DNA from: Thermoanaerobaculia bacterium
GTDB lineage: Bacteria; Acidobacteriota; Thermoanaerobaculia; Multivoradales; UBA5704
DNA: 64,000 bases
Direction of reading: 5' to 3'
Assembly (NCBI GenBank): GCA_044226625.1
Contig: JBGAGQ010000004.1
Span: 32,001-96,000, forward strand
The position numbers and the translations under genes are program-made. Below the pieces are notes generated by a model that was not told where the DNA came from, searched no databases, and saw only the letters and a list, made by a program, of their open reading frames with translations. Below, piece after piece: positions 28,206 through 50,183 of this stretch. How positions within the stretch are numbered: position 1 is the first letter of the stretch; each line of letters begins with the position of its first letter.

Positions 28206-29350
28206 GGCGTCGGCTCTTTCGCCGTGCTCTCGGCGTCCTTCGGGCTGTCCGGGTTCTCCCGACTCGGCTCAGGCGTGGCGACGGCGGCCAGCGCATCCCC
28301 TTCCGCGAGCAAGGCGGCACCCGCGACCACGACCCGGTCGCCTGGCGAAAGGCCGCGCAGGATCTCCACCCGTCCGCCGCCGCGTGCGCCCGTTTCGACC
28401 GCCTGGCGGTGGGCGATGAGGCGCCCACGGGCCCTTTCGGCGACGAACAACGCACCCCCACCTTCCGCCAGCACCAGGGCCTCTTCGGGGACCGTGAGCG
28501 CTTGGTCGTGCCGGTCGAGCAAGACGCGGATCTCCACCCCTTCTCCCGGCGCCGGCAGACCCGTCGGGTTTTCCACTCCGATTACCAGGGCGACGGTTCC
28601 GCCGGCGTCGACCATCGGCGCCACCTCGAGCACGCGGCCCGAGCCGGTTTCCTCCTTTCCCGATCCGCTCAAAAAGCGCACGGCGAGCCCCGGATGCAAG
28701 CGGTCGCGATCGGCCGCCGCCGCGCGCCCCTCGACGCGTAACGCGCCGTCGGCGGCGACGCGCCCGAGGACGCTTCCCGCGGCGACCTCCGATCCCGGCA
28801 CGATGGGTTCCGAAATCACGAGGCGACCGGACAGCGGAGCCGTGAGCGACAGGCGACCGAGCCGGTTTTCCGCAGCGGCGAGGCGACCTCGGGCGAGATC
28901 GAGCTCAGCTTTGTAGGCGGCGAGCGTCACCGCCGGCTCGACCCCAGCATCGAAGGCCCGCTGGTGGCGCGCCACTTCCGACTCGGCGCCCCGAACCTTG
29001 AGGCGTGCCTCGGCGAGATCCGCCTCGACATCGCCGAGCGAAATGCGGGCGAGCACCTCCCCCTTCCTCACCTCAGCCCCGGTTGCCAGCCCGCCGGCGA
29101 ATCGCCCTGGATACGACAGCCGGCCGGCCAGGGGCACCGTCACCTCGGCCATCCCCCCCGGCCTCACCACACCGAGCAGCGAAAGTTCCGGCTCGAAGGT
29201 CGTGCGTCGGGCGACCTCCAACCTCACCGGAGCCGGCGGCGCCTCCTCGGAAGGTGGCGCGGGAGCCCGGCCGCAGGCGGCGAGGAGGATCAGCGCACAG
29301 AATCCGAGGGCACCAACGCGGGGGCGGGTTTTCATCGCAATCTCCGTCAT
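28202..29350 (-). CDS. RND periplasmic adaptor (MFP), lipoprotein
   Basis: Lipobox LLAAC, VRKGEVLARI, LTAPLSG, VPEEAL, VEILRGLSPGDRVV; ATGA overlap with upstream gene. Confidence 0.88.
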   Translation of the reverse strand: MTEIAMKTRPRVGALGFCALILLAACGRAPAPPSEEAPPAPVRLEVARRTTFEPELSLLGVVRPGGMAEVTVPLAGRLSYPGRFAGGLATGAEVRKGEVLARISLGDVEADLAEARLKVRGAESEVARHQRAFDAGVEPAVTLAAYKAELDLARGRLAAAENRLGRLSLTAPLSGRLVISEPIVPGSEVAAGSVLGRVAADGALRVEGRAAAADRDRLHPGLAVRFLSGSGKEETGSGRVLEVAPMVDAGGTVALVIGVENPTGLPAPGEGVEIRVLLDRHDQALTVPEEALVLAEGGGALFVAERARGRLIAHRQAVETGARGGGRVEILRGLSPGDRVVVAGAALLAEGDALAAVATPEPSRENPDSPKDAESTAKEPTP

Positions 29351-30042
29351 GACACGAGGGTCTCCGGCCGGCGCAAGCGACGGCGGGCGTAGAGGAAGAA
29401 GATCGAAGCGGCACCGAGGAGCACGATCGAATCGCCGAGAAAGGCGAGCGATTCCTCCCCGCCGGCGACCCAACCGTTCCAGACCGCGAAATGCCGGTCG
29501 GGGATCGGGTTCGAGAAGAACCAACGCGAGAAGGCGAGCACCGTCCCCATCGACGCGAGCCAGACCGCCCCGCCGCTCTTCGTGCGCACCGCCCAGAACA
29601 GCGCCACCGCGGCGAGGAACAACGAGACGATCGCGACCTTGACGAGCGCCGGCAGGAGCGGGAAACCGGTTCCCCCTTCGAACAGCCAGTCGAGCCCCAG
29701 AAGCAGCCATCCCTGGGCGCAGAGCACACTGGCCACCGCCGCCGCCCGACGAAGGAAGTACGCCTCAGCCGCCGGGGTGGTGAGCGCGAGATCGAGGCAG
29801 CCGGCCCGCCGCTCGACCTCGACGATGCCGGACAGCGCCGGCAGACCGAGCAGCAGGAACGGCGGCAGGACGACCCCCGACCAGACCGCCGCCGGCTCGT
29901 CCCCGTCGCCAAGCAACATCGACAGGAGCGCGGCCAGGATCACCAAACCATCGACCACCGCAAAGAGGACGAGACGGCGGCCGAGCAGCAGCTCGAGCGA
30001 CGACCGAAAACTCGCGAATCGGCTTCTCAATTGGCGCCGCAT
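29347..30042 (-). CDS. ABC-2-type permease-like membrane protein
   Basis: ~6 TM segments, EVERRAGCLDLALTTP ABC-2 motif. Confidence 0.7.
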   Translation of the reverse strand: MRRQLRSRFASFRSSLELLLGRRLVLFAVVDGLVILAALLSMLLGDGDEPAAVWSGVVLPPFLLLGLPALSGIVEVERRAGCLDLALTTPAAEAYFLRRAAAVASVLCAQGWLLLGLDWLFEGGTGFPLLPALVKVAIVSLFLAAVALFWAVRTKSGGAVWLASMGTVLAFSRWFFSNPIPDRHFAVWNGWVAGGEESLAFLGDSIVLLGAASIFFLYARRRLRRPETLVS

Positions 30043-40643: not shown

Positions 40644-41981
40644 ATGACGACCGAGAACTCCCGCTCCAGGGCTTCCCTCAAGGCTTCGGCCTGGCTCCTC
40701 CTCCTGCTCGCCGCCTCCATGCCGACGACGGCGGCCGAGTCTCCACGGCACGTTTCGGCCCGATCGCTGCTCGCGATCTCCACCCAAGCGATCGTCGCGG
40801 TGCAGCATGCCGCCGCGGCCGACGCGCGCCTCACCGGTACCCCGTCCGCCAGCCCCGCGCGCGTCGCTCCGTTCTGGGCCTCGCTCCAGGGAGCCACACA
40901 GGCGCTCGCAGAGCTCCGGGCGGGGCTGGGCGATCCGGGCGTCCCGCCCGCCGGTGATCTTTTCTCCCGCGTGGCCCGCGCGGGAGGGCGGCTCGCCGAG
41001 CTCTCCGCGGCCTGGAATCGACTGGGCGTACCGAATGCCGGCGTCCAAGCGGGGCTCTCGACGCTTTCGACCTCCTGGACGTTGTTCCGCGGGACCTACG
41101 GTCCGGAAGGGGTTCGCCACCGCCAGGACCGCCCGCTCACAGCCGAGGAGGCTCATCGGCTGGAGGTGGTCCAGCGCGCCCAGGAGCGGCTCGCGGCCCA
41201 GATCCTGCGCTTGGAAGAGCGCGCTCGCCGATCGCGCGAGACCGAAGAGGCGCGCCGTCTCGCGAGGTTCCGCGCGCGGGTCGAAGCGCCCGCGCTCGCG
41301 GCGAGCGATCTCGACGCCTACCTCGCAGCGCTCGCCACGTTGCCGGAGATCGAAGGCGAATGGTCGGCGCTCAAGGCCGCGGCACCCAAGGAGCGGCGCA
41401 TCGCTTACGCCCGGCTGGATCCCATCGTCGAAGAGATCCAAACCGAGGCGGAAATCGGCTCCGTGCAGGTGCTCGACCTCGATCGCGGCAAGGCCTGGAA
41501 GTTCCTCGATCAGACGACCGCGGTTCCCGAGAGCCTCGCCTCCGCGGTCCTCGCCCTGGAAGATCCGACCGCTGACGAGGCCACGGAAGGTGACGAGGAG
41601 GGCGAGTTCGCCGAAGCCATCACGTCGGAAGCCGAGAGCTGGTGTGCCGAGGACGACGAGGAGTGCCTGGCGGCGGAAGAATCCGCAGCAGCCCACGAGG
41701 CCGCGCAAACCCCGATTGCCGAAGGAGCCGAGCAGGCCAGCCCGCTGAAACCGGAGAGCCGCGAAGTGGAGCGCGCCCAGGCCGGAATCGCCGCCGCCTC
41801 GACGCCGGCACCGACCCAGGCTCCCGCGGCGAAGGCGCCGCAATTCCCCGGGCTTTGCGGCGATTCCTCCGCCGATGGCTGCACCGCGGCGCCCGATCCC
41901 GCGGCGCTGTCGGAGACCGCACCGAGCAGCAGCTCTTCTTCTGCGCCCCCAAGGGGAACCTTCGACCCCGCGAAGGGCTGA
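40644..41981 (+). CDS. Hypothetical secreted protein, helical with acidic low-complexity tail
   Basis: Signal peptide (WLLLLLAASMPTTAA); fills the gap between + strand genes. Confidence 0.6.
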   Translation: MTTENSRSRASLKASAWLLLLLAASMPTTAAESPRHVSARSLLAISTQAIVAVQHAAAADARLTGTPSASPARVAPFWASLQGATQALAELRAGLGDPGVPPAGDLFSRVARAGGRLAELSAAWNRLGVPNAGVQAGLSTLSTSWTLFRGTYGPEGVRHRQDRPLTAEEAHRLEVVQRAQERLAAQILRLEERARRSRETEEARRLARFRARVEAPALAASDLDAYLAALATLPEIEGEWSALKAAAPKERRIAYARLDPIVEEIQTEAEIGSVQVLDLDRGKAWKFLDQTTAVPESLASAVLALEDPTADEATEGDEEGEFAEAITSEAESWCAEDDEECLAAEESAAAHEAAQTPIAEGAEQASPLKPESREVERAQAGIAAASTPAPTQAPAAKAPQFPGLCGDSSADGCTAAPDPAALSETAPSSSSSSAPPRGTFDPAKG

Positions 41982-43639: not shown

Positions 43640-44539
43640 TCAGACGGCGAGCATCTCCTGGATCCACATCTGCGCGAGCGACGGCGGCGAACCGACGGTC
43701 GCGCGCAGGAGCGTCTTGATCTTCGATTCAAGCGCCGAGGCGATGGCCGCGACGGGCGGGTAGGGCAAGGTGAGGAACGCGAGCCCCGCGCCGGGAAGCG
43801 AGTCCTCGGGACCGTCGACCAGTAACGGCACCAGGTGCGCCGCCCGGCCCGCGAGATCCCAGAACCAGGGACGCGGGGAGAGTCTCTCCCCCGCATCCTC
43901 GACGACGATCAGGGGCCGATGCTCCCGTTCGAGCACACCTCGGACCTCCGTCCGATCCGGAACGTCCAAACCCGAGATCAGCAGGAACGCGGGCTCGCCC
44001 GCGGGAAGCCCCGAGAACGCCCGAGCCAGGGCTTCCGCTTCGAGGGCGACCTCCACAAGCCTCGCTCCGGTATGAAGCCCGAGCGGCTCTTCGAAAGCGC
44101 TCGGCTCGGCTGCCGCGACGAAGGCCGCGCGCCCGGGCACCAGAAACATCTCCGCGAGGCACGAAAGCGCGAGCGTCCGACCCGAGGTCACGATCGGCAG
44201 CGAGGAGAGGATCTCCTCAGGAATGACCAGCCGCTGGCGCGCCCGCCACGCCGCCCGAACCTCAGCGATCCCCTCGACCGGCGAATACAGGAACGAGCGG
44301 TCCCGCGCCTCGTCCGGCAGACCGGAGAGCGCCGCCGCCATCGGTTCGAGCGGCAGCGGGTGGCCATGGCCGTCCGTAATCTGGCCGATCGTTCCGTTGT
44401 ACACGGTCCCACGGGCGTCCGCGGTCTGCTGGGGCAGGAAGTTCGCGGGCTGATAGAGCCGCCGGCCGAGCGGAGAGAGCGCGGCCCAAACGGCGGGCGC
44501 CTCGGCCTGGAGTACGAGATCGGCGGGAGCGGCGCTCAA
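43640..44539 (-). CDS. Truncated, degenerate class I/II aminotransferase-like protein
   Basis: YNGTIGQITDG, FLYSPVEGIAEVR, PIVTSG; only 299 aa; no Lys in expected PLP loop. Confidence 0.65.
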   Translation of the reverse strand: MSAAPADLVLQAEAPAVWAALSPLGRRLYQPANFLPQQTADARGTVYNGTIGQITDGHGHPLPLEPMAAALSGLPDEARDRSFLYSPVEGIAEVRAAWRARQRLVIPEEILSSLPIVTSGRTLALSCLAEMFLVPGRAAFVAAAEPSAFEEPLGLHTGARLVEVALEAEALARAFSGLPAGEPAFLLISGLDVPDRTEVRGVLEREHRPLIVVEDAGERLSPRPWFWDLAGRAAHLVPLLVDGPEDSLPGAGLAFLTLPYPPVAAIASALESKIKTLLRATVGSPPSLAQMWIQEMLAV

Positions 44540-46242
44540 AATTCCTCCTCCGCTCCTTTCTGTCGATCTTCAAAGGCGAAATACTGAAGGACGTCTTCCT
44601 CGGTCAAACCCGAAGATCCCAGGAAGCTCGAGCCGGCGCCTTCCTGCGCGGCCGGCGACGGAAACGGTTGCGTCGGATCGGCCGGCGCAGCCGGAGCCGC
44701 CTCTGAGACGGGTGCGACGTGGGCACGACCTCCCGGATCCCCTAGACGCGAGAGCCTGAGTTCCCGGCCGATGCGCGGCTTGACTCTCGCTTCTCCCCCG
44801 ACGAGGCCCTCTACACCGCCGCTCAGGCTCACCTCACTCGCTTCCGCTCGCGACTCGCCGCTTGGATGGAGTTTCAGGCTTACCGGCCGCTCGGCGTCGG
44901 TCGTGACGATCAGTAAGCCCTCCGGGGTCTCGAAATGGATCCTCCTTTCTCCAGCGTCTCCTGACCGGATCGGCCGGATCGCTCCCCGAATCTCGCCCTC
45001 GGCCGATTTCGAGTTGAGGCTTTGGCGGGGCGGCCGGCGAAGTAGCTTCGGCTCCTCCGCGCTCGACGCTTCCGCCGGTAAGCGAAGACGAGCCGTGTTG
45101 GGGAACCGGAAGATCGTCTGGTTCGGCCGGTGTTCCTGCTCGGCCACAGTCACCCCGCCGGGAAATGCGAGCGCATCTTCCCGTCGCACGAGCGGCTTTC
45201 CCAATCTCCCCCGGACCTCCTCCTTGGTCACCTGCGCTCGCCCGAACCCGGCCGCGCCGAATCCCGTTTGTCCCTGCTCCTTGGCATTGGGTCCGATCGG
45301 TCGATAGGTCCGGCGAAAGTTGGGATCGAGAACCGTCTTCGTCGCGCCGCTCCCGATCGCCTCTCGAACGGCAAACCCCTGGCAGGAGTCGCACTGCCGA
45401 AAGCTGTCACCGATCACGGACGATTCGACGAGCCCGGCGGGATCCGCATGCCATTTGGCGCCGATCGTCGAGGGCACGTCCTCGGGAAAAACGTGCCCGA
45501 TCCGCCAAGCTCGGTCGGTTTGGGGTCGATTGGCAGCCGGCTCGAGGCCCGCCTCTCGAAGGATCGAGCTCTGCTCCGCGGTCGCCCCGCCGTATCCGCT
45601 GAGGAAAGCCCGTCGCTCTGCGGTGGCGACGAGCGCGCGCTTTCCGATGTTCGGAATCCGGCTCCGGACGTCGAGCGCCGCGTACGCCTCTTCGGCCGAA
45701 AGGGGCACCAAGGAGCCGGGACCGCCCTCTGTCGAGGACGAAGACGACGAGGCCGGGGAAGGCGAGTCGCTTCCTGGCTCGGGGCTCTTTCGCTTCGGCG
45801 AAACCCCTAGAGAGCTGGGAGTTCGCGCCACATCAGGCGGCAGCAGAGCAGGCGGCCCCACCGGATAGGGCGGCCAAGGCACCGGCGGCAACGTGGACGG
45901 TTGGCTGGAAGACGAAGGGGGGATGCGCGGCGGTGGAGACGAGAGGCCATGGCTCACCGACTGTGAGGCGGGTGATGGAGAAAGGGCGATGGAAACGCCG
46001 GGTGCGCCCGATGGAGCTGAGAGCCTCGGCTTTTTGTTTTTGGCCGGAGTCGCGTCCTCCTCCTCGCCGGGGCCGGCCCGCTGGATCGGCACCGAGGGGA
46101 GCCGCTCGAGCCGATGTCCGAACCCGTTCGTCTCTCGGGCCGCGAGACTCGCCGATCGTCGGTCCGAGCCGGCCAGGCGCGGGCGCGACAGGGGCTCGAC
46201 AGCGGCTGGTATCGCCAGCGGCCGACGCGTGGAGCGAAACAT
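44536..46242 (-). CDS. Orphan effector-like protein with deaminase-like motif
   Basis: N-terminal GHRLERLP...IQR, Pro/Ser-rich disordered region, WHAD...QCDSC. Confidence 0.55.
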   Translation of the reverse strand: MFRSTRRPLAIPAAVEPLSRPRLAGSDRRSASLAARETNGFGHRLERLPSVPIQRAGPGEEEDATPAKNKKPRLSAPSGAPGVSIALSPSPASQSVSHGLSSPPPRIPPSSSSQPSTLPPVPWPPYPVGPPALLPPDVARTPSSLGVSPKRKSPEPGSDSPSPASSSSSSTEGGPGSLVPLSAEEAYAALDVRSRIPNIGKRALVATAERRAFLSGYGGATAEQSSILREAGLEPAANRPQTDRAWRIGHVFPEDVPSTIGAKWHADPAGLVESSVIGDSFRQCDSCQGFAVREAIGSGATKTVLDPNFRRTYRPIGPNAKEQGQTGFGAAGFGRAQVTKEEVRGRLGKPLVRREDALAFPGGVTVAEQEHRPNQTIFRFPNTARLRLPAEASSAEEPKLLRRPPRQSLNSKSAEGEIRGAIRPIRSGDAGERRIHFETPEGLLIVTTDAERPVSLKLHPSGESRAEASEVSLSGGVEGLVGGEARVKPRIGRELRLSRLGDPGGRAHVAPVSEAAPAAPADPTQPFPSPAAQEGAGSSFLGSSGLTEEDVLQYFAFEDRQKGAEEEF

Positions 46243-46324
46243 GGCGTCCGAATCCTAGCCCGAAACGCGCTCTCGCCCGGCGCCTGGACCGGGTCGCCGC
46301 GCCGCATGGCGCTCGAGAAACGGT

Positions 46325-47872
46325 CTAACCCTCCGGCTCGATCTCGTCCTGCGCCGCCGGCTTCGGCGGCGACGTCGCGGGGGGCGGAGCAGGCAGCACG
46401 GCGGGCCCGAGGCCGGGGGGCCTGCTCCCCGAAGCCGCGGCGAGGAGAGTGGACGCGGGAGGAGGAGGCGGGCCGCCGCGGCCAGTGTAGGCCGCCACCG
46501 AGCTCGACGGCGCCGCGGCGAGGAGCGCGTGCGCGAGAGAGGGGGGCGGCGGAGCGGTGAGGGGCGCCGCCATGCCCGAGACGGTCGAACTGCTCGCCGA
46601 GGCACTTGCCGCGAGGGACACCGCGGCGGCAGTCCCCGAGGCGGCTGCGGCCGCGGCCGCCGCGGGAGGCCTCGGGAGCCGACGAAGGACCCGCGGATGC
46701 GGCGACTGGTCCTTCGCCAGTTTTCTGGTGCGCGGCAGCGCAACGACTTCAGGAGCCTCTCCCCTATCCCGGGCCTCCTGCAACCGCTTGCGTTCGGCGA
46801 CGGTCACCCTGCTCGCCTCGTAGAGGTCGAGGATGTCTTCCTTGCTCACCCCCCCGCGGATCAGAACCTCTTTCGAACGCTTGGCGAAATTCGCCGCGGT
46901 ATCGCCGAGCCCATGAGAGCCCCGCTGCACTTCATCGTTCAAATCCACGACGGCGCCGCTCTCGCGGAGATGCTTCGGGATGCGCACCTTGGCCACCCGA
47001 CGCCCGCCGCGCCCGCTCTCGCTCGCCCAGGCGGCCGTCCTCGACCGGCTGCGGCTGGTGGAAACGAAACCCGATTTGACCTTCGCGCTGGTGCCCGCTC
47101 CGACGTGCTGACTCACGGTGACGTTCGGATCGTGACCGGCCGGAGGCAACAGACCCGTCTCGTACGGGTTTTCCTCCGGGCGCAAGGCTCGAAATACGAC
47201 GTCGGGATCGTCCCGATCGGAGCGGTCCGAATCGCTGTCCGACAGGTGGTGACGACCGGGACGGGGAGCTTTTCGCTTGTTCGGACGGCGGACGGCCGCC
47301 GCGGCGAGCGGAGCTGCCGCGGCCGCGGCGGTGGGAGCCTCGTCGCCGCCCGGAGCGTCGTCATCGTCTTCCGCTGGGGCCGCGGCCGTCGCCGCTCCGG
47401 GGGCCGCGGTCGCCCCGACGTCCGCCCCAAAACCCATCCCCCCTCCTCCACCGCCACCATCCGACCTCGGCCGGTGGGCCGCCAGCGCGAGCCTCAAGGC
47501 ATCGGCCTGTTCGGCCGGAATCAGATCCGGGACGTCGTCGTCGTCTCCGCCCGCCGTGAGGTCCGCCGCGGCCGTCGGCGCGGGAGCCGGTGCGACAGCA
47601 GGCGGGGCAGCCGCGGCAGCCGCGGCGGGCTCGGCCTCGGGGCTTGCGGGGCGGGTCCGCATCCGTCTCCGCTTGCGGACCGGCTTCGGCATGCGCTGCA
47701 CCACATCGGCAGCCTCCGAGGTCGCCGGCAGGCGCTCGAGGGCATGCCCGAGCCGATTCGCCGTTTCGGGTTCGGCGGACCCCGCGGTCGGCGCCGCCGG
47801 ACGGGCCGGCTCTTCTCGCGCCGCGGGAATGGCTCCGTTCGGCGGAGCTGTTCTCAGCGATGACTGGAACAC
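46325..47872 (-). CDS. Orphan effector-like protein with ADP-ribosyltransferase (R-S-E)-like domain
   Basis: N-terminal GHALERLP...VQR; VVFRAL ... FVSTSRS ... SKEVL flanked by Ala/Pro-rich tracts. Confidence 0.62.
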   Translation of the reverse strand: MFQSSLRTAPPNGAIPAAREEPARPAAPTAGSAEPETANRLGHALERLPATSEAADVVQRMPKPVRKRRRMRTRPASPEAEPAAAAAAAPPAVAPAPAPTAAADLTAGGDDDDVPDLIPAEQADALRLALAAHRPRSDGGGGGGGMGFGADVGATAAPGAATAAAPAEDDDDAPGGDEAPTAAAAAAPLAAAAVRRPNKRKAPRPGRHHLSDSDSDRSDRDDPDVVFRALRPEENPYETGLLPPAGHDPNVTVSQHVGAGTSAKVKSGFVSTSRSRSRTAAWASESGRGGRRVAKVRIPKHLRESGAVVDLNDEVQRGSHGLGDTAANFAKRSKEVLIRGGVSKEDILDLYEASRVTVAERKRLQEARDRGEAPEVVALPRTRKLAKDQSPHPRVLRRLPRPPAAAAAAAASGTAAAVSLAASASASSSTVSGMAAPLTAPPPPSLAHALLAAAPSSSVAAYTGRGGPPPPPASTLLAAASGSRPPGLGPAVLPAPPPATSPPKPAAQDEIEPEG

Positions 47873-47934: not shown

Positions 47935-48092
47935 GCGAAAAAGCCCGGACCGCGGCGACTCCGCGGCTCCGGTCGGCCGTTTGAAACGATCTCGAGCCAA
48001 GCGGTACCTTCGTCCGCCGCACGAGCCGAGACCGTGACCTTCGAGCCGGCCTCAATCGAAACCCAATCCAGATGGAGGTAGAGGAGGACCGT

Positions 48093-50183
48093 ATGGCTGC
48101 CGCTGTCGAGACCCATCAGTTCCAGGCCGAGACCAAGAAGCTGCTCGACCTGATGATCCATTCGCTGTATTCGAACAAAGAGATCTTCCTGCGCGAGTTG
48201 ATCTCGAATGCCTCCGACGCGCTCGATCGGCTCCGCTTCGAAGCGCTCACCCGCCCCGAGCTCCTGGGCGAGGAGAAGCTCGAGATCCGCCTCGACACGA
48301 ACAAGGAGCCGCGCACCCTCACCATTTCCGACAACGGCATCGGCATGAACCGAGACGAGGTGATCGCCAACATCGGCACGATCGCCAAGTCCGGCACCCG
48401 CGAGATGGTCGAACGGATGGAGGGCGCGGAGTCCAAGCAGGCGATCGCCGAGATGATCGGCCAGTTCGGCGTCGGCTTCTACTCGTCGTTCATGGCCGCC
48501 GACAAAGTCGTCCTGGTCACCCGTCGCGCGGGCGAGGACAAGGCCTGGCGCTGGGAGTCGACCGGCGATGGCACCTACCAGATCGAAGAGGCCGAGCGGA
48601 GCGGACACGGCACCTCGATCACCCTCTATCTAAAGCCCGAGGACAAGGAGAACGGTCTCGACGACTTCGCCGAGCGTTGGGCGATCCAGCGGGTGGTCCG
48701 CCGCTACTCCGATTTCGTCACCTATCCGATCGTCCTCAAGGCCGAGAACGACGAGGACCTCGACAAGAAGGTGATGGGCGAGGACGTCCAGGTCCGGGTC
48801 GAGGACAAGGTCCTCAACTCGATGAAGCCGATCTGGACCCGGCCGCAGTCGGAGGTCACCGCCGACGAATACAAGGATTTCTTCCGCCACATCGCGCACG
48901 ACTGGAACGAGCCGCTCAAGGTGCTCTCGTTCAAGGCCGAGGGGCGGATCGAATACCAGGCCCTCCTGTTCATTCCGTCGGAGGCGCCGTACGACCTCTA
49001 CTACGTCGCCTCGAAGCCCGCCCTCCAGCTCTACGTCAAGCGCATCCAGATCATGGAGAAGTGCGAGGACCTGCTGCCGCAGTACCTCCGCTTCGTCCGC
49101 GGTGTGGTCGACTCGCCCGACCTGCAGCTCAACGTCTCGCGCGAAATGCTGCAGCAGGACCGCCACATCGCGCAGATGAAAAAGTGGCTGACCAAGAAGC
49201 TGCTCGAGTCGTTCGAGGAGATGAAGAAGGGCGAGGAGGAAACGTACCTCAAGTTCTGGAAGCAGTTCGGCCGCTGCCTGAAGGAAGGGACCAGCTCGGA
49301 CTATGAGAACAAAGAGAAGCTGATCGAGCTGCTGGTCTTCGAGTCGTCCGCCGACAAGGAGAAGCTCACCTCGTTCGCCGACTACGTCTCCCGCATGCAG
49401 GAGGGGCAGACCGAGATCTTCTACCTGACCGGCGAGTCGCGTGAAGTGGTCGAGAACTCACCCCATCTCGAGGCGTTCAAGGCGAAGGGCATCGAGGTCC
49501 TGTACCTCACCGACACGGTCGACGAGTTGCTGGTCCAGTCGCTCCACGAGGTCCAGGGCAAGAAACTCAAGTCGGTCGAGAAGGGCACCGTCAAGCTGGG
49601 CAACGAGGACGAGCAGAAGAAGATCGAGGCGGAGCTCAAGGAGAAGGAGGAGCACCTTCGCCCGTTCCTCGACCATCTCCAGAAGCTGCTCGACACCCAC
49701 GTCAAGCAGGTCCGCCTGACCAACCGGCTGACCGCTTCGCCGGTTTGCCTGGTCGGCGCCGAGCACGACTACAGCCCGCAGCTCGAGCGGTTGCTCCAGA
49801 AGGGCAAGGGGGGCGGCCCGGCGCAGCGCCGGATCGTCGAGCTCAATCCGAGCCACCCCATCCTCACTCGCCTGCACGGCCTCTGGCACGCCGATCCAAA
49901 GGATCCGCGGATCGAGGATTACGCCCAGATGTTGCTCGGCTACGGCCTGCTCGCCGAGAGCGCCGAGATCCCCGACGTCGTCCGCTTCAACCGCGCGGTC
50001 GCCGACCTGATGACCCGCGGCGTCGCCGACGCGCCGCCCGCCCCCGAACCGGCGCCGAAGCCCGAGGCCGTGGCGGAAGAAGGGAAAGCGGAGCCGGTGG
50101 AGGTCAAGCCGTCCAACGTGGTGATCGAGGTGCCGAAGGCCGAAGCCGCCGCCGAGGCCCCGGTCGCCGACTCGAAGGAGTAG
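48093..50183 (+). CDS. htpG: Molecular chaperone HtpG (Hsp90)
   Basis: HSLYSNKEIFLRELISNASDA, IGQFGVGFYS, LNVSREMLQ. Confidence 0.98.
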   Translation: MAAAVETHQFQAETKKLLDLMIHSLYSNKEIFLRELISNASDALDRLRFEALTRPELLGEEKLEIRLDTNKEPRTLTISDNGIGMNRDEVIANIGTIAKSGTREMVERMEGAESKQAIAEMIGQFGVGFYSSFMAADKVVLVTRRAGEDKAWRWESTGDGTYQIEEAERSGHGTSITLYLKPEDKENGLDDFAERWAIQRVVRRYSDFVTYPIVLKAENDEDLDKKVMGEDVQVRVEDKVLNSMKPIWTRPQSEVTADEYKDFFRHIAHDWNEPLKVLSFKAEGRIEYQALLFIPSEAPYDLYYVASKPALQLYVKRIQIMEKCEDLLPQYLRFVRGVVDSPDLQLNVSREMLQQDRHIAQMKKWLTKKLLESFEEMKKGEEETYLKFWKQFGRCLKEGTSSDYENKEKLIELLVFESSADKEKLTSFADYVSRMQEGQTEIFYLTGESREVVENSPHLEAFKAKGIEVLYLTDTVDELLVQSLHEVQGKKLKSVEKGTVKLGNEDEQKKIEAELKEKEEHLRPFLDHLQKLLDTHVKQVRLTNRLTASPVCLVGAEHDYSPQLERLLQKGKGGGPAQRRIVELNPSHPILTRLHGLWHADPKDPRIEDYAQMLLGYGLLAESAEIPDVVRFNRAVADLMTRGVADAPPAPEPAPKPEAVAEEGKAEPVEVKPSNVVIEVPKAEAAAEAPVADSKE

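Follow-up and report, generated by a model that had tools for sequence, protein, structure and literature searches.

The stretch analysed here, referred to as the window, comprises 64,000 nucleotides of a Thermoanaerobaculia-like genome (positions 32,001-96,000 of contig C84 of G000, an assembly of 6.6 Mb in 133 contigs) and contains two adjacent genes, A and B, whose products carry a common N-terminal leader in front of otherwise unrelated putative toxin cores. The same leader was found on further proteins dispersed over the genome, including a DUF4157 protein encoded within its locus for an extracellular contractile injection system (eCIS). Judging from the comparison of genomes and from analogy with studied systems, the leader is most likely a tag that marks cargo for a phage-tail-like injection machine, and we estimate on comparative and computational grounds a probability of roughly 0.7 that it serves as the cargo loading or processing signal of this eCIS lineage.

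A common leader on two adjacent genes

The two genes and their leaders are as follows, the leader coordinates having been computed from the starts of the open reading frames (ORFs).

44536-46242, minus strand: gene A, ORF of 568 aa with an ATG start; leader, Pro/Ser-rich linker, deaminase-like core and beta-rich C-terminal domain
46325-47872, minus strand: gene B, ORF of 515 aa whose start, GTG, is translated as M; leader, Ala/Pro/Asp-rich linker, ADP-ribosyltransferase-fold core and Ala/Pro-rich tail
46078-46242, minus strand: leader of A, residues 1-55; disordered start, Gly-His motif (GH box) at residues 36-49 (46096-46137), PIQR at residues 52-55 (46078-46089)
47693-47872, minus strand: leader of B, residues 1-60; disordered start, GH box at residues 38-49 (47726-47761), VVQR at residues 57-60 (47693-47704)

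The genes are separated by 82 nt. A begins with MFRST and B with MFQSS, giving the common start MF(R/Q)S, and residues 37-55 of A read ETNGFGHRLERLPSVPIQR while residues 36-60 of B read ETANRLGHALERLPATSEAADVVQR. In both proteins the Gly and His of the GH box are residues 42 and 43, within the string R/G-[LF]-G-H-x-L-E-R-L-P, and the similar part closes with PIQR at residue 55 of A or with VVQR at residue 60 of B. When the two proteins were compared with each other by BLASTP (a single comparison), only residues 1-51 aligned, with 43% identity and E=0.013, and no other segment aligned at E<1. This agrees with the original prediction, made from the letters of the window, that the neighbouring proteins share an N-terminal signal and are otherwise unrelated, and the strings it quoted are exact. 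Its claim that neither protein has a Sec/Tat signal was likewise upheld: a hydrophobic signal-peptide core was not found in the first 70 residues of either, where the best 15-residue Kyte-Doolittle mean was 0.49 for A and 0.34 for B. The fraction of disorder-promoting residues among the first 40 is 0.70 in A and 0.78 in B, by a measure of composition rather than a disorder predictor. The leader is covered by no Pfam or NCBIfam model, PF13699 (DUF4157) has no match in A or B at E<=1, and both proteins are also without HExxH.

The leader family within the genome

A profile of four N-termini (those of A, B, a third copy in the genome and the metagenomic protein P0002) was searched against the 56,984 six-frame ORFs of at least 60 aa in G000. 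In the first round E was below 0.001 for seven additional ORFs and between 0.011 and 0.049 for another two, and the second round added four at E from 6.7e-5 to 0.0019. The leader family in G000 has 16 credible members on 11 contigs, and a separate search with the 16-row leader alignment A2 likewise returned 16 matches. An ORF on C20, which came up in the second round, was left out as doubtful (E=0.023-0.2, no QR), and two matches to a regular expression that both lie outside the leader context, a DnaE2-like polymerase on C109 and an ORF on C125, were discarded as chance matches. The consensus reads sLExAxR[LF]GHR[FL]E[ANR]L, followed by 2-30 residues that are often Pro-rich and then by PIQR, and the similarity among members ends at the QR in every one of them. 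With the most plausible starts, GH stands at residue 42-48 in 13 of the 16 members and at residues 24, 54 and 56 in the other three; in five members, A and B included, there is a single possible start upstream of the motif. Three tandem pairs, namely A/B, two members on C14 and two on C81, account for 6 of the 16.

It could be argued that such a similarity arose by chance, or that the ORFs are spurious, in a genome of 68-72% G+C that has many overlapping ORFs in all frames and low-complexity linkers. We consider this extremely improbable. A profile of the 14 members without A and B still recovered both among the 56,984 ORFs (E=1.6e-5 for B and 0.0098 for A), ranking them directly below the training rows with the next ORF at E=0.15, and the match is therefore beyond what chance would give. 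Furthermore, all four Gly codons are used for the invariant Gly (5, 2, 4 and 5 times) and both His codons for the His (CAT 11, CAC 5), so that the conservation is at the protein and not at the DNA level. Both A and B also have homologues whose cores are conserved at 46-57% identity, and B is predicted to adopt a known toxin fold, as described below.

As the original prediction had anticipated, the leader recurs in front of variable C-terminal domains, and Pfam recognised the following among the 16 carriers.

C121 member: Peptidase_M91, E=2.4e-8, above the cut-off
C12 and C37 members: Peptidase_M91, below the cut-off
C3 member: HNH, E=3.1e-7
C53 member: eCIS_core/DUF4157, E=1.3e-27

The remaining members gave nothing credible in Pfam; B was placed by its fold instead. 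Within the first 70 residues no 15-residue stretch has a hydropathy above 1.17 in 15 of the 16 members, the exception being the C100 member (L003:11362-12348, minus strand), in which a Gly/Ala-rich, membrane-like stretch directly follows the PIQR. This protein has a close metagenomic homologue, P0018, and P0019 and P0026 look alike; members of this type may represent a pore-forming or membrane-active class of cargo. An assignment of the C100 member as an AHH/HNH nuclease, suggested by the string 'TAHHKLPF', was dropped because it has no Pfam match.

The eCIS locus

G000 contains one gp19-type tube gene and two sheath genes, and its DUF4157 domains are confined to contigs C53 and C16. Its sole contractile-injection locus lies on the minus strand of C53, and a sheath (VipB) of type VI secretion (T6SS) was not found in G000, so that an injection machine encoded elsewhere in the genome, as had been proposed from the window, is indeed present. 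The order of the locus is as follows.

C53, minus strand, first part: sheath (848 aa), sheath (532 aa), gp19 tube, T4_baseplate-like protein, ORF of 1654 aa without a Pfam match
C53, minus strand, second part: AAA+ ATPase of 1035 aa (winged-helix domain, WHD, plus AAA), ORF of 135 aa, DUF4157 protein of 216 aa, CIS_tube
C53, minus strand, third part: ORF of 396 aa, Phage_base_V spike (OB domain), Baseplate_J, ORF of 1386 aa, Tail_P2_I, Laminin_G_3/DUF6519 fibre-like protein

The 216-aa DUF4157 (eCIS_core) protein is itself a member of the leader family; it is encoded one 135-aa ORF downstream of the ATPase and beside the CIS_tube and spike genes, and its leader (..LETAERLGHDFARLPPVQR..) is located directly upstream of the DUF4157 domain (residues 75-148). 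In its orthologues the GH box is also directly upstream of DUF4157 in G003 and G006, with IQR present in G003 and missing in G006. The 1654-aa and 1386-aa ORFs (L002:8776-13740 and L001:13089-17249, both minus strand) gave no match in Pfam, and the former, lying between the tube-like genes and the ATPase, might occupy the position where a tape-measure protein or an in-locus cargo is expected.

A second DUF4157 protein, on C16, has the GH box SLGHRFEER and no PIQR. On the same contig (L015:8441-8645, plus strand) a DUF4157 domain seems to be divided between two frames or ORFs, with separate matches to positions 6-27 and 49-78 of PF13699, and its translation meets stops; this may be a decayed gene upstream of the intact 605-aa one.

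Distribution of the leader and of the eCIS lineage

The leader profile was run on 61 genomes covering G000 itself, its genus (8 genomes), family and order, 53 of them from 30 other genera, with the following numbers of matches.

G000: 16
G006: 8
G002: 7
G005: 7
G003: 5
G001: 1
G004 (98% complete): 0
G007 (89% complete): 0
53 genomes of 30 other genera: 0

Among the 61 genomes the leader is therefore confined to the genus, where 6 of the 8 genomes have it. Genes for eCIS are common in the same set (DUF4157 in 38/61, gp19 tube in 36/61), and thus the restriction of the leader does not result from a lack of eCIS. Orthologues of the G000 ATPase at 65-74% identity were found only in G002, G003, G005 and G006; three are full-length, and in G005 the start of the contig truncates the orthologue at query residue 124. 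The remaining ATPase matches have at most 62% identity and mostly cover residues ~400-1035 only, the N-terminal region (residues 1-400) being specific to this lineage in that search. Thus, the genomes with 5-16 leaders and those with this eCIS lineage are the same five. In addition, a gene encoding a leader plus DUF4157 is located just downstream of the ATPase in G003, G005 and G006, and G002 and G005 have another leader gene on the contig of the tube gene, at a distance of 4-8 kb from it.

Outside these genomes, a 38-position leader profile matched 28 proteins at E<=0.001 among 1.84 billion representatives. Eight are apparently G000's own (six by identical length, including P0001, which is A, and two by an identical sequence that begins at another start), while P0014 and P0028 are repeat junk. 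In the 18 foreign proteins the motif starts at residue 2-91 and the C-termini vary; among them are an HNH protein, M91-like HELxH proteins and Gly-zipper-like proteins, as well as P0033, in which the leader is combined with a canonical DUF4157 domain. A scan of assembled contigs with the leader pattern gave two loci, both in one Thermoanaerobaculia metagenome-assembled genome, the pattern being a narrow one that gives no measure of spread.

Proposed role of the leader

That the leader acts as a loading signal is suggested by the family, by the position of its motifs and by its link to the eCIS, together with the analogy of the N-terminal loading sequences of AlgoCIS and of the Photorhabdus virulence cassettes (PVC). 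According to passages of the respective sources, the disordered N-terminal domain of Cgo1 and Cgo2 is required for loading into AlgoCIS, for which DUF4157 is dispensable (10.64898/2026.05.27.728243), and PVC signal peptides act with the Pvc15 ATPase and show 'rare homology' (PMC11495950). By this analogy A and B would be orphan cargo (toxin) genes of the single eCIS on another contig. Their leader, with ~40 disordered, non-hydrophobic residues, a GH box at a near-fixed distance from the N-terminus, a short and often Pro-rich spacer and [PV][IV]QR, would be recognised by the loading apparatus, that is, by the AAA+ ATPase, perhaps together with the small DUF4157 protein; the toxin behind the leader would be packed into the lumen of the tube and injected, and [ILV]QR would represent a module boundary and possibly a processing site. 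The payloads would be of different kinds, with B bearing a cholera/pertussis-type fold and A probably an SsdA-like deaminase plus a beta-rich domain. The earlier proposal of a stand-alone signal that defines a family of effectors for a machine encoded elsewhere thus finds comparative and computational support.

Several observations weigh against this interpretation. First, it has been reported, in the part of the source that deals with the point, that 88% of known eCIS-associated toxins (EATs) are located within about ten genes of the eCIS operon (PMC11297309), whereas 15 of the 16 leader genes here are on contigs other than that of the eCIS; the contig of A and B is C84 and that of the eCIS is C53, so that in this 133-contig assembly they are not placed within ~10 genes of the operon, and C84 has no tube, sheath or DUF4157 matches. 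Second, the co-distribution of the leader and the eCIS lineage was observed within one genus of close kin and represents at most two or three independent gains or losses. The ATPase search used a stricter filter, and its tallies are a floor. G001 has one leader match while its ATPase is only a 145-residue fragment at a contig edge. Furthermore, the ATPase frames contain in-frame stops, two in G002 (C40:94188-97289, minus strand; TAG and TAA) and one in G003 (C15:2646-5750, plus strand; TGA), in genomes that keep seven and five leader proteins, respectively; sequencing error, decay or recoding could account for them. The regular position of the motif is favoured, because the starts were picked by the analyst where several were possible. 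Finally, no RNA sequencing runs containing the sequence were found; one DNA run, possibly that of the source sample, contained 0.97 of its words.

Some of these observations would also fit a leader that is unrelated to eCIS, being instead the N-terminal module of a genus-specific polymorphic family with another export route or with an intracellular role, in which case the co-occurrence would reflect shared ancestry. Every leader-positive genome belongs to one genus, as this explanation would have it, and the dispersal of the members away from the eCIS contig is also in its favour. We regard it as improbable, since one member is the DUF4157 core protein within the eCIS locus, in an arrangement kept in G003, G005 and G006; since G004 and G007, which are without an orthologous ATPase, have no leader matches at 98% and 89% completeness; and since P0033, which is not a G000 protein, joins the leader to a canonical DUF4157 domain. 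The absence of a Sec/Tat-like hydrophobic core and of a detected T6SS sheath gene also argues against another export route.

DUF4157 and the [ILV]QR boundary

DUF4157 is described as a core marker of eCIS whose role is unexplained, in the passages of PMC8213781 and PMC11297309 that concern it. We collected 34 canonical DUF4157 domains from 20 loci in 20 related genomes with the regular expression VRVH...HExxHxxQQ, which leaves divergent domains uncounted, and found [ILV]QR within 70 residues downstream of the domain in 22 of the 34 and at 18-110 residues upstream in 23, with about 3.5% expected per 70 residues. Expressed per residue, the motif occurs at 0.0099 in the downstream stretch, at 0.0007 in the rest of the C-termini and at 0.0005 in long G000 ORFs. 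When the GH box was compared with the first segment of DUF4157 (MEPRFGHDFSxVRVH), hhalign paired the two weakly, with P=0.0026, a probability of 11.5% and 13 columns. The original prediction had stated that GH-box-like and QR motifs occur in DUF4157 proteins; this proved correct both for the DUF4157 protein of the eCIS locus, which has the same leader, and for the flanks of the related domains.

Many of the related DUF4157 proteins, including those of G001 and G004 in the same genus, carry a different, Cys-rich leader, LQRKCACG..CEECRKK..LQR. Such a module, 'LQRKCACGxH..GGxCxxCxKK..LQR' between two LQR motifs, was observed in loci L039-L054, which belong to G001, G004, G016, G021, G022, G028, G037, G051 and G057, and it may be the counterpart leader of those eCIS lineages. 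It follows that the leader varies with the eCIS lineage and that the QR boundary is common to the lineages.

These results bear on the possibility that the leader is read not by the ATPase but, in trans, by the small DUF4157 protein, to which it would offer a docking site or a substrate. This protein would be either an adaptor that holds leader-bearing cargo to the spike/tube-initiator complex or a zincin peptidase that frees the toxin by cutting at [ILV]QR. For instance, the small DUF4157 gene lies between the ATPase and the CIS_tube and spike genes, part of a preprint on the Streptomyces SLP (10.1101/2025.11.06.686954) suggests such an arrangement, [ILV]QR flanks DUF4157 far more often than expected, and the GH box resembles the domain's own start, FGxDFSxVRVH. 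Nevertheless, we think this rather unlikely, because the resemblance comes with the low hhalign probability and the 13 columns given above, because DUF4157 is dispensable for loading in AlgoCIS and the toxicity of Cgo1 is independent of its metalloprotease motifs (PMC8894135, in the part that treats this toxin), and because the small DUF4157 protein has the leader itself, which is a poor fit for a simple receptor. A complex prediction with the leader of A (75 aa, 12 rows) and the DUF4157 part (157 aa, 20 rows) gave, without controls, a score of 0.00 against a mark of 0.32 and says nothing either way.

A further proposal, to which we likewise give a low probability, is that the contractile injection machine is served by a 'leader-peptidase' system of which the leader forms the substrate half. 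In that case the GH box would be a free-standing copy of the first strand of DUF4157 (FGHDFSxVRVH) and [ILV]QR the cleavage site. The small DUF4157 protein, which bears the leader, would therefore be co-packaged with the cargo and, either within the tube or inside the target cell, would act in trans to trim the leaders from all 15 orphan toxins, while the fused DUF4157 toxins of other lineages would excise their own domain at the two flanking [ILV]QR sites. If this were true, the most widespread eCIS marker would gain both a function and a recognition sequence.

Predicted payloads

Under the reading of the leader as an eCIS loading signal, A and B would deliver the following domains, and the different enzymatic cores that had been suggested for the two proteins were found, with B assigned by fold and A only weakly deaminase-like.

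46673-47215, minus strand: core of B, about residues 220-400; R-S-E type ADP-ribosyltransferase (ART) fold, weak DUF7587 match
45283-45675, minus strand: core of A, about residues 190-320; conserved block, candidate SsdA-like deaminase
44713-45282, minus strand: C-terminal beta-rich domain of A, about residues 321-510; predicted strands, per-residue model confidence (pLDDT) 70-89

The core of B is predicted, from its modelled structure, to be a cholera/pertussis-type ADP-ribosyltransferase fold. An AlphaFold2 model of residues 205-400, built on an alignment of three sequences, had a pLDDT of 72.4, and in a Foldseek comparison with the PDB it matched 38 chains at E<=0.001, the best being EcPltA (4z9d; E=2.1e-6, probability 1.00), with further matches to pertussis toxin S1, typhoid toxin PltA, cholera toxin A1, the heat-labile toxin LT and the Rhs toxin TreX. 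A search with the same residues gave two metagenomic homologues, P0005 and P0006, which are 46-53% identical over the core and both have a GH-box leader, P0005 with [IV]QR as well. Each of the three sequences has the motifs FRxLR, VS-x-[ST]RS (VS[TL][ST]RS) and [KQ]EVL in invariant or conserved form. PF24494 (DUF7587) matched B below the cut-off (E=0.0029), and P0005 is annotated with DUF7587. B is thus like the R-S-E toxins (PltA, pertussis S1, cholera A1 and TreX) in its predicted fold and in the conserved Arg, Ser-x-Ser/Thr and Glu positions, but differs from them in having 15-24% identity, no B-subunit genes and another mode of delivery.

A is, on balance, probably an SsdA-like deaminase toxin, although we hold this with less assurance than the role proposed for the leader. 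Three metagenomic homologues (P0002-P0004) were found, of which P0002 has 52% identity over 92% coverage and the same leader including [IV]QR. The string IGHVF..PST.GA.xH(A/S)DP..IGDS.R.C.SCQG..RE.I.SG..K..DPNF.R, in which x is W, Y or F, is invariant in all four A homologues, and a profile search against the PDB aligned HAD, CxxCQG[FY] and DPxxxRxF of A with HAE, CTDCQGY and DPKAIRIF of SsdA (E=0.1 and 0.26). Of the Atlas feature matches listed for A, those that fall in named clusters belong to deaminase-toxin families (Toxin-deaminase, SCP1201-like, MsddA-like, MafB19 and SsdA_C), with scores of 0.76-0.80 that serve as a lead only. A weakly resembles the SsdA-type deaminase toxins at H-A-x, C-x-x-C-Q-G and DP...R.F, but differs from them in that Asp, in a conserved HxD, stands where SsdA has HAE. 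This Asp in place of the usual catalytic Glu in 4/4 homologues, together with the weakness of the match, counts against the assignment and is among the points against the overall interpretation. The AlphaFold2 model of A from a four-row alignment had a pLDDT of 65, with the conserved block (core residues 56-102) below 50, and with this poor model Foldseek gave no PDB match for the core at E<=0.001; the C-terminal domain likewise had no PDB fold match at that level.

Comparison with known systems

N-terminal loading signals on diverse toxins of eCIS are already known. In the published passages considered, the toxins of PVC (Pnf and Pdp1, with Pvc15) and of AlgoCIS (Cgo1 and Cgo2, with Alg15) resemble A and B in having a disordered, non-hydrophobic N-terminus of ~50-60 residues before unrelated toxins and an ATPase in the locus, and in that the leaders are alike within a system and not between systems. 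They differ in that the leader described here has a sharp motif, the GH box followed by PIQR, whose distance from the N-terminus is fixed, and in that loading, which is known there, is a proposal here. A small DUF4157-only protein encoded in a CIS locus is also present in the SLP of Streptomyces lividans, namely Sle2, and effectors without DUF4157 associate there through their N-terminal region, according to part of the preprint cited above for this system; however, that region is a long, tape-measure-like coiled coil and the system is cytoplasmic, in contrast to the short GH-box leader. The DUF4157/eCIS_core toxins (PF13699, 'PVC-metallopeptidase') are similar in that a leader can precede DUF4157, as in the eCIS-locus protein and P0033, and in their [ILV]QR boundaries and C-terminal toxin domains, but A and B have neither a DUF4157 domain nor HExxH and do not adjoin a DUF4157 gene.

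MIX and FIX are marker domains of T6SS effectors. RIX is a further such domain, as stated in part of PMC10435454. The present leader is like these three in concept, since a common N-terminal marker on polymorphic, dispersed effectors makes a repertoire findable by sequence; it differs in the machine concerned (eCIS instead of T6SS), is much shorter and largely disordered, and has no sequence relation to them.

A GH-box/PIQR leader or an [ILV]QR boundary is not described in the main-text passages of the DUF4157 and CIS-loading literature that were covered, supplements being outside that scope. The sharp motif at a fixed position, its presence on a large, dispersed set of cargo away from the operon and without DUF4157, and the statistics of the [ILV]QR boundary appear to be new. 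The payloads themselves are ordinary in kind (ART, deaminase-like, M91 peptidase and HNH). The interest of the leader lies rather in the fact that eCIS cargo is hard to find, as published signals are little alike and predictors rely on closeness to the operon and on DUF4157. The leader retrieves a set of 16 genes over 11 contigs, mostly without Pfam matches, and, if it is a true loading signal, it would allow orphan eCIS effectors in Acidobacteriota to be listed directly. It is also a compact, bounded unit from the N-terminus to the QR that is open to dissection, and the occurrence of [ILV]QR on both sides of DUF4157 in 20 related genomes is a lead on the role of this domain.

Locus and neighbouring genes

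The genes that flank A and B are listed below.

43640-44539, minus strand: gene of 299 aa adjoining A; 71-75% identity in 7/7 other genomes of the genus; no Pfam match
48072-50183, plus strand: htpG, used in tblastn on the loci of relatives

In the relatives, the 299-aa gene and htpG are divergent and roughly 90-290 nt apart (6/6 loci by tblastn, that of G005 not among them), whereas in G000 they are separated by 3,532 nt that contain A and B. By this comparison of loci, A and B constitute an insertion of ~3.5 kb that has htpG on one side and the conserved gene on the other. None of the seven other genomes of the genus yielded the core of A or that of B, and no mobility gene was found within the insert. 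Because the cores are absent from kin in which the flanks adjoin, A and B can be regarded as species-specific accessory DNA, as expected for polymorphic effectors. The 299-aa ORF, conserved across the genus (8/8 genomes), is therefore not an immunity gene, and in this sense the earlier statement that the pair has no immunity-sized gene holds.

Elsewhere in the window, the gene at 40644-41981 (plus strand), upstream of an alpha-amylase-like one, encodes a protein of 445 aa whose start looks like a signal peptide and whose C-terminus is acidic and Ala-rich; the only Pfam match of this protein was a chance-level one to cutinase. A resistance-nodulation-division (RND) efflux operon with an HlyD-like adaptor and an AcrB-like pump, at 21034-29710 (minus strand), falls within the window's most G+C-rich part, where G+C is 72-74% and the AT skew 0.2-0.3. 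Within it, the 1366-aa ORF at 21034-25134 combines an N-terminal piece of AcrB with an ABC ATPase domain and probably represents several genes, or a frameshift, read as one.

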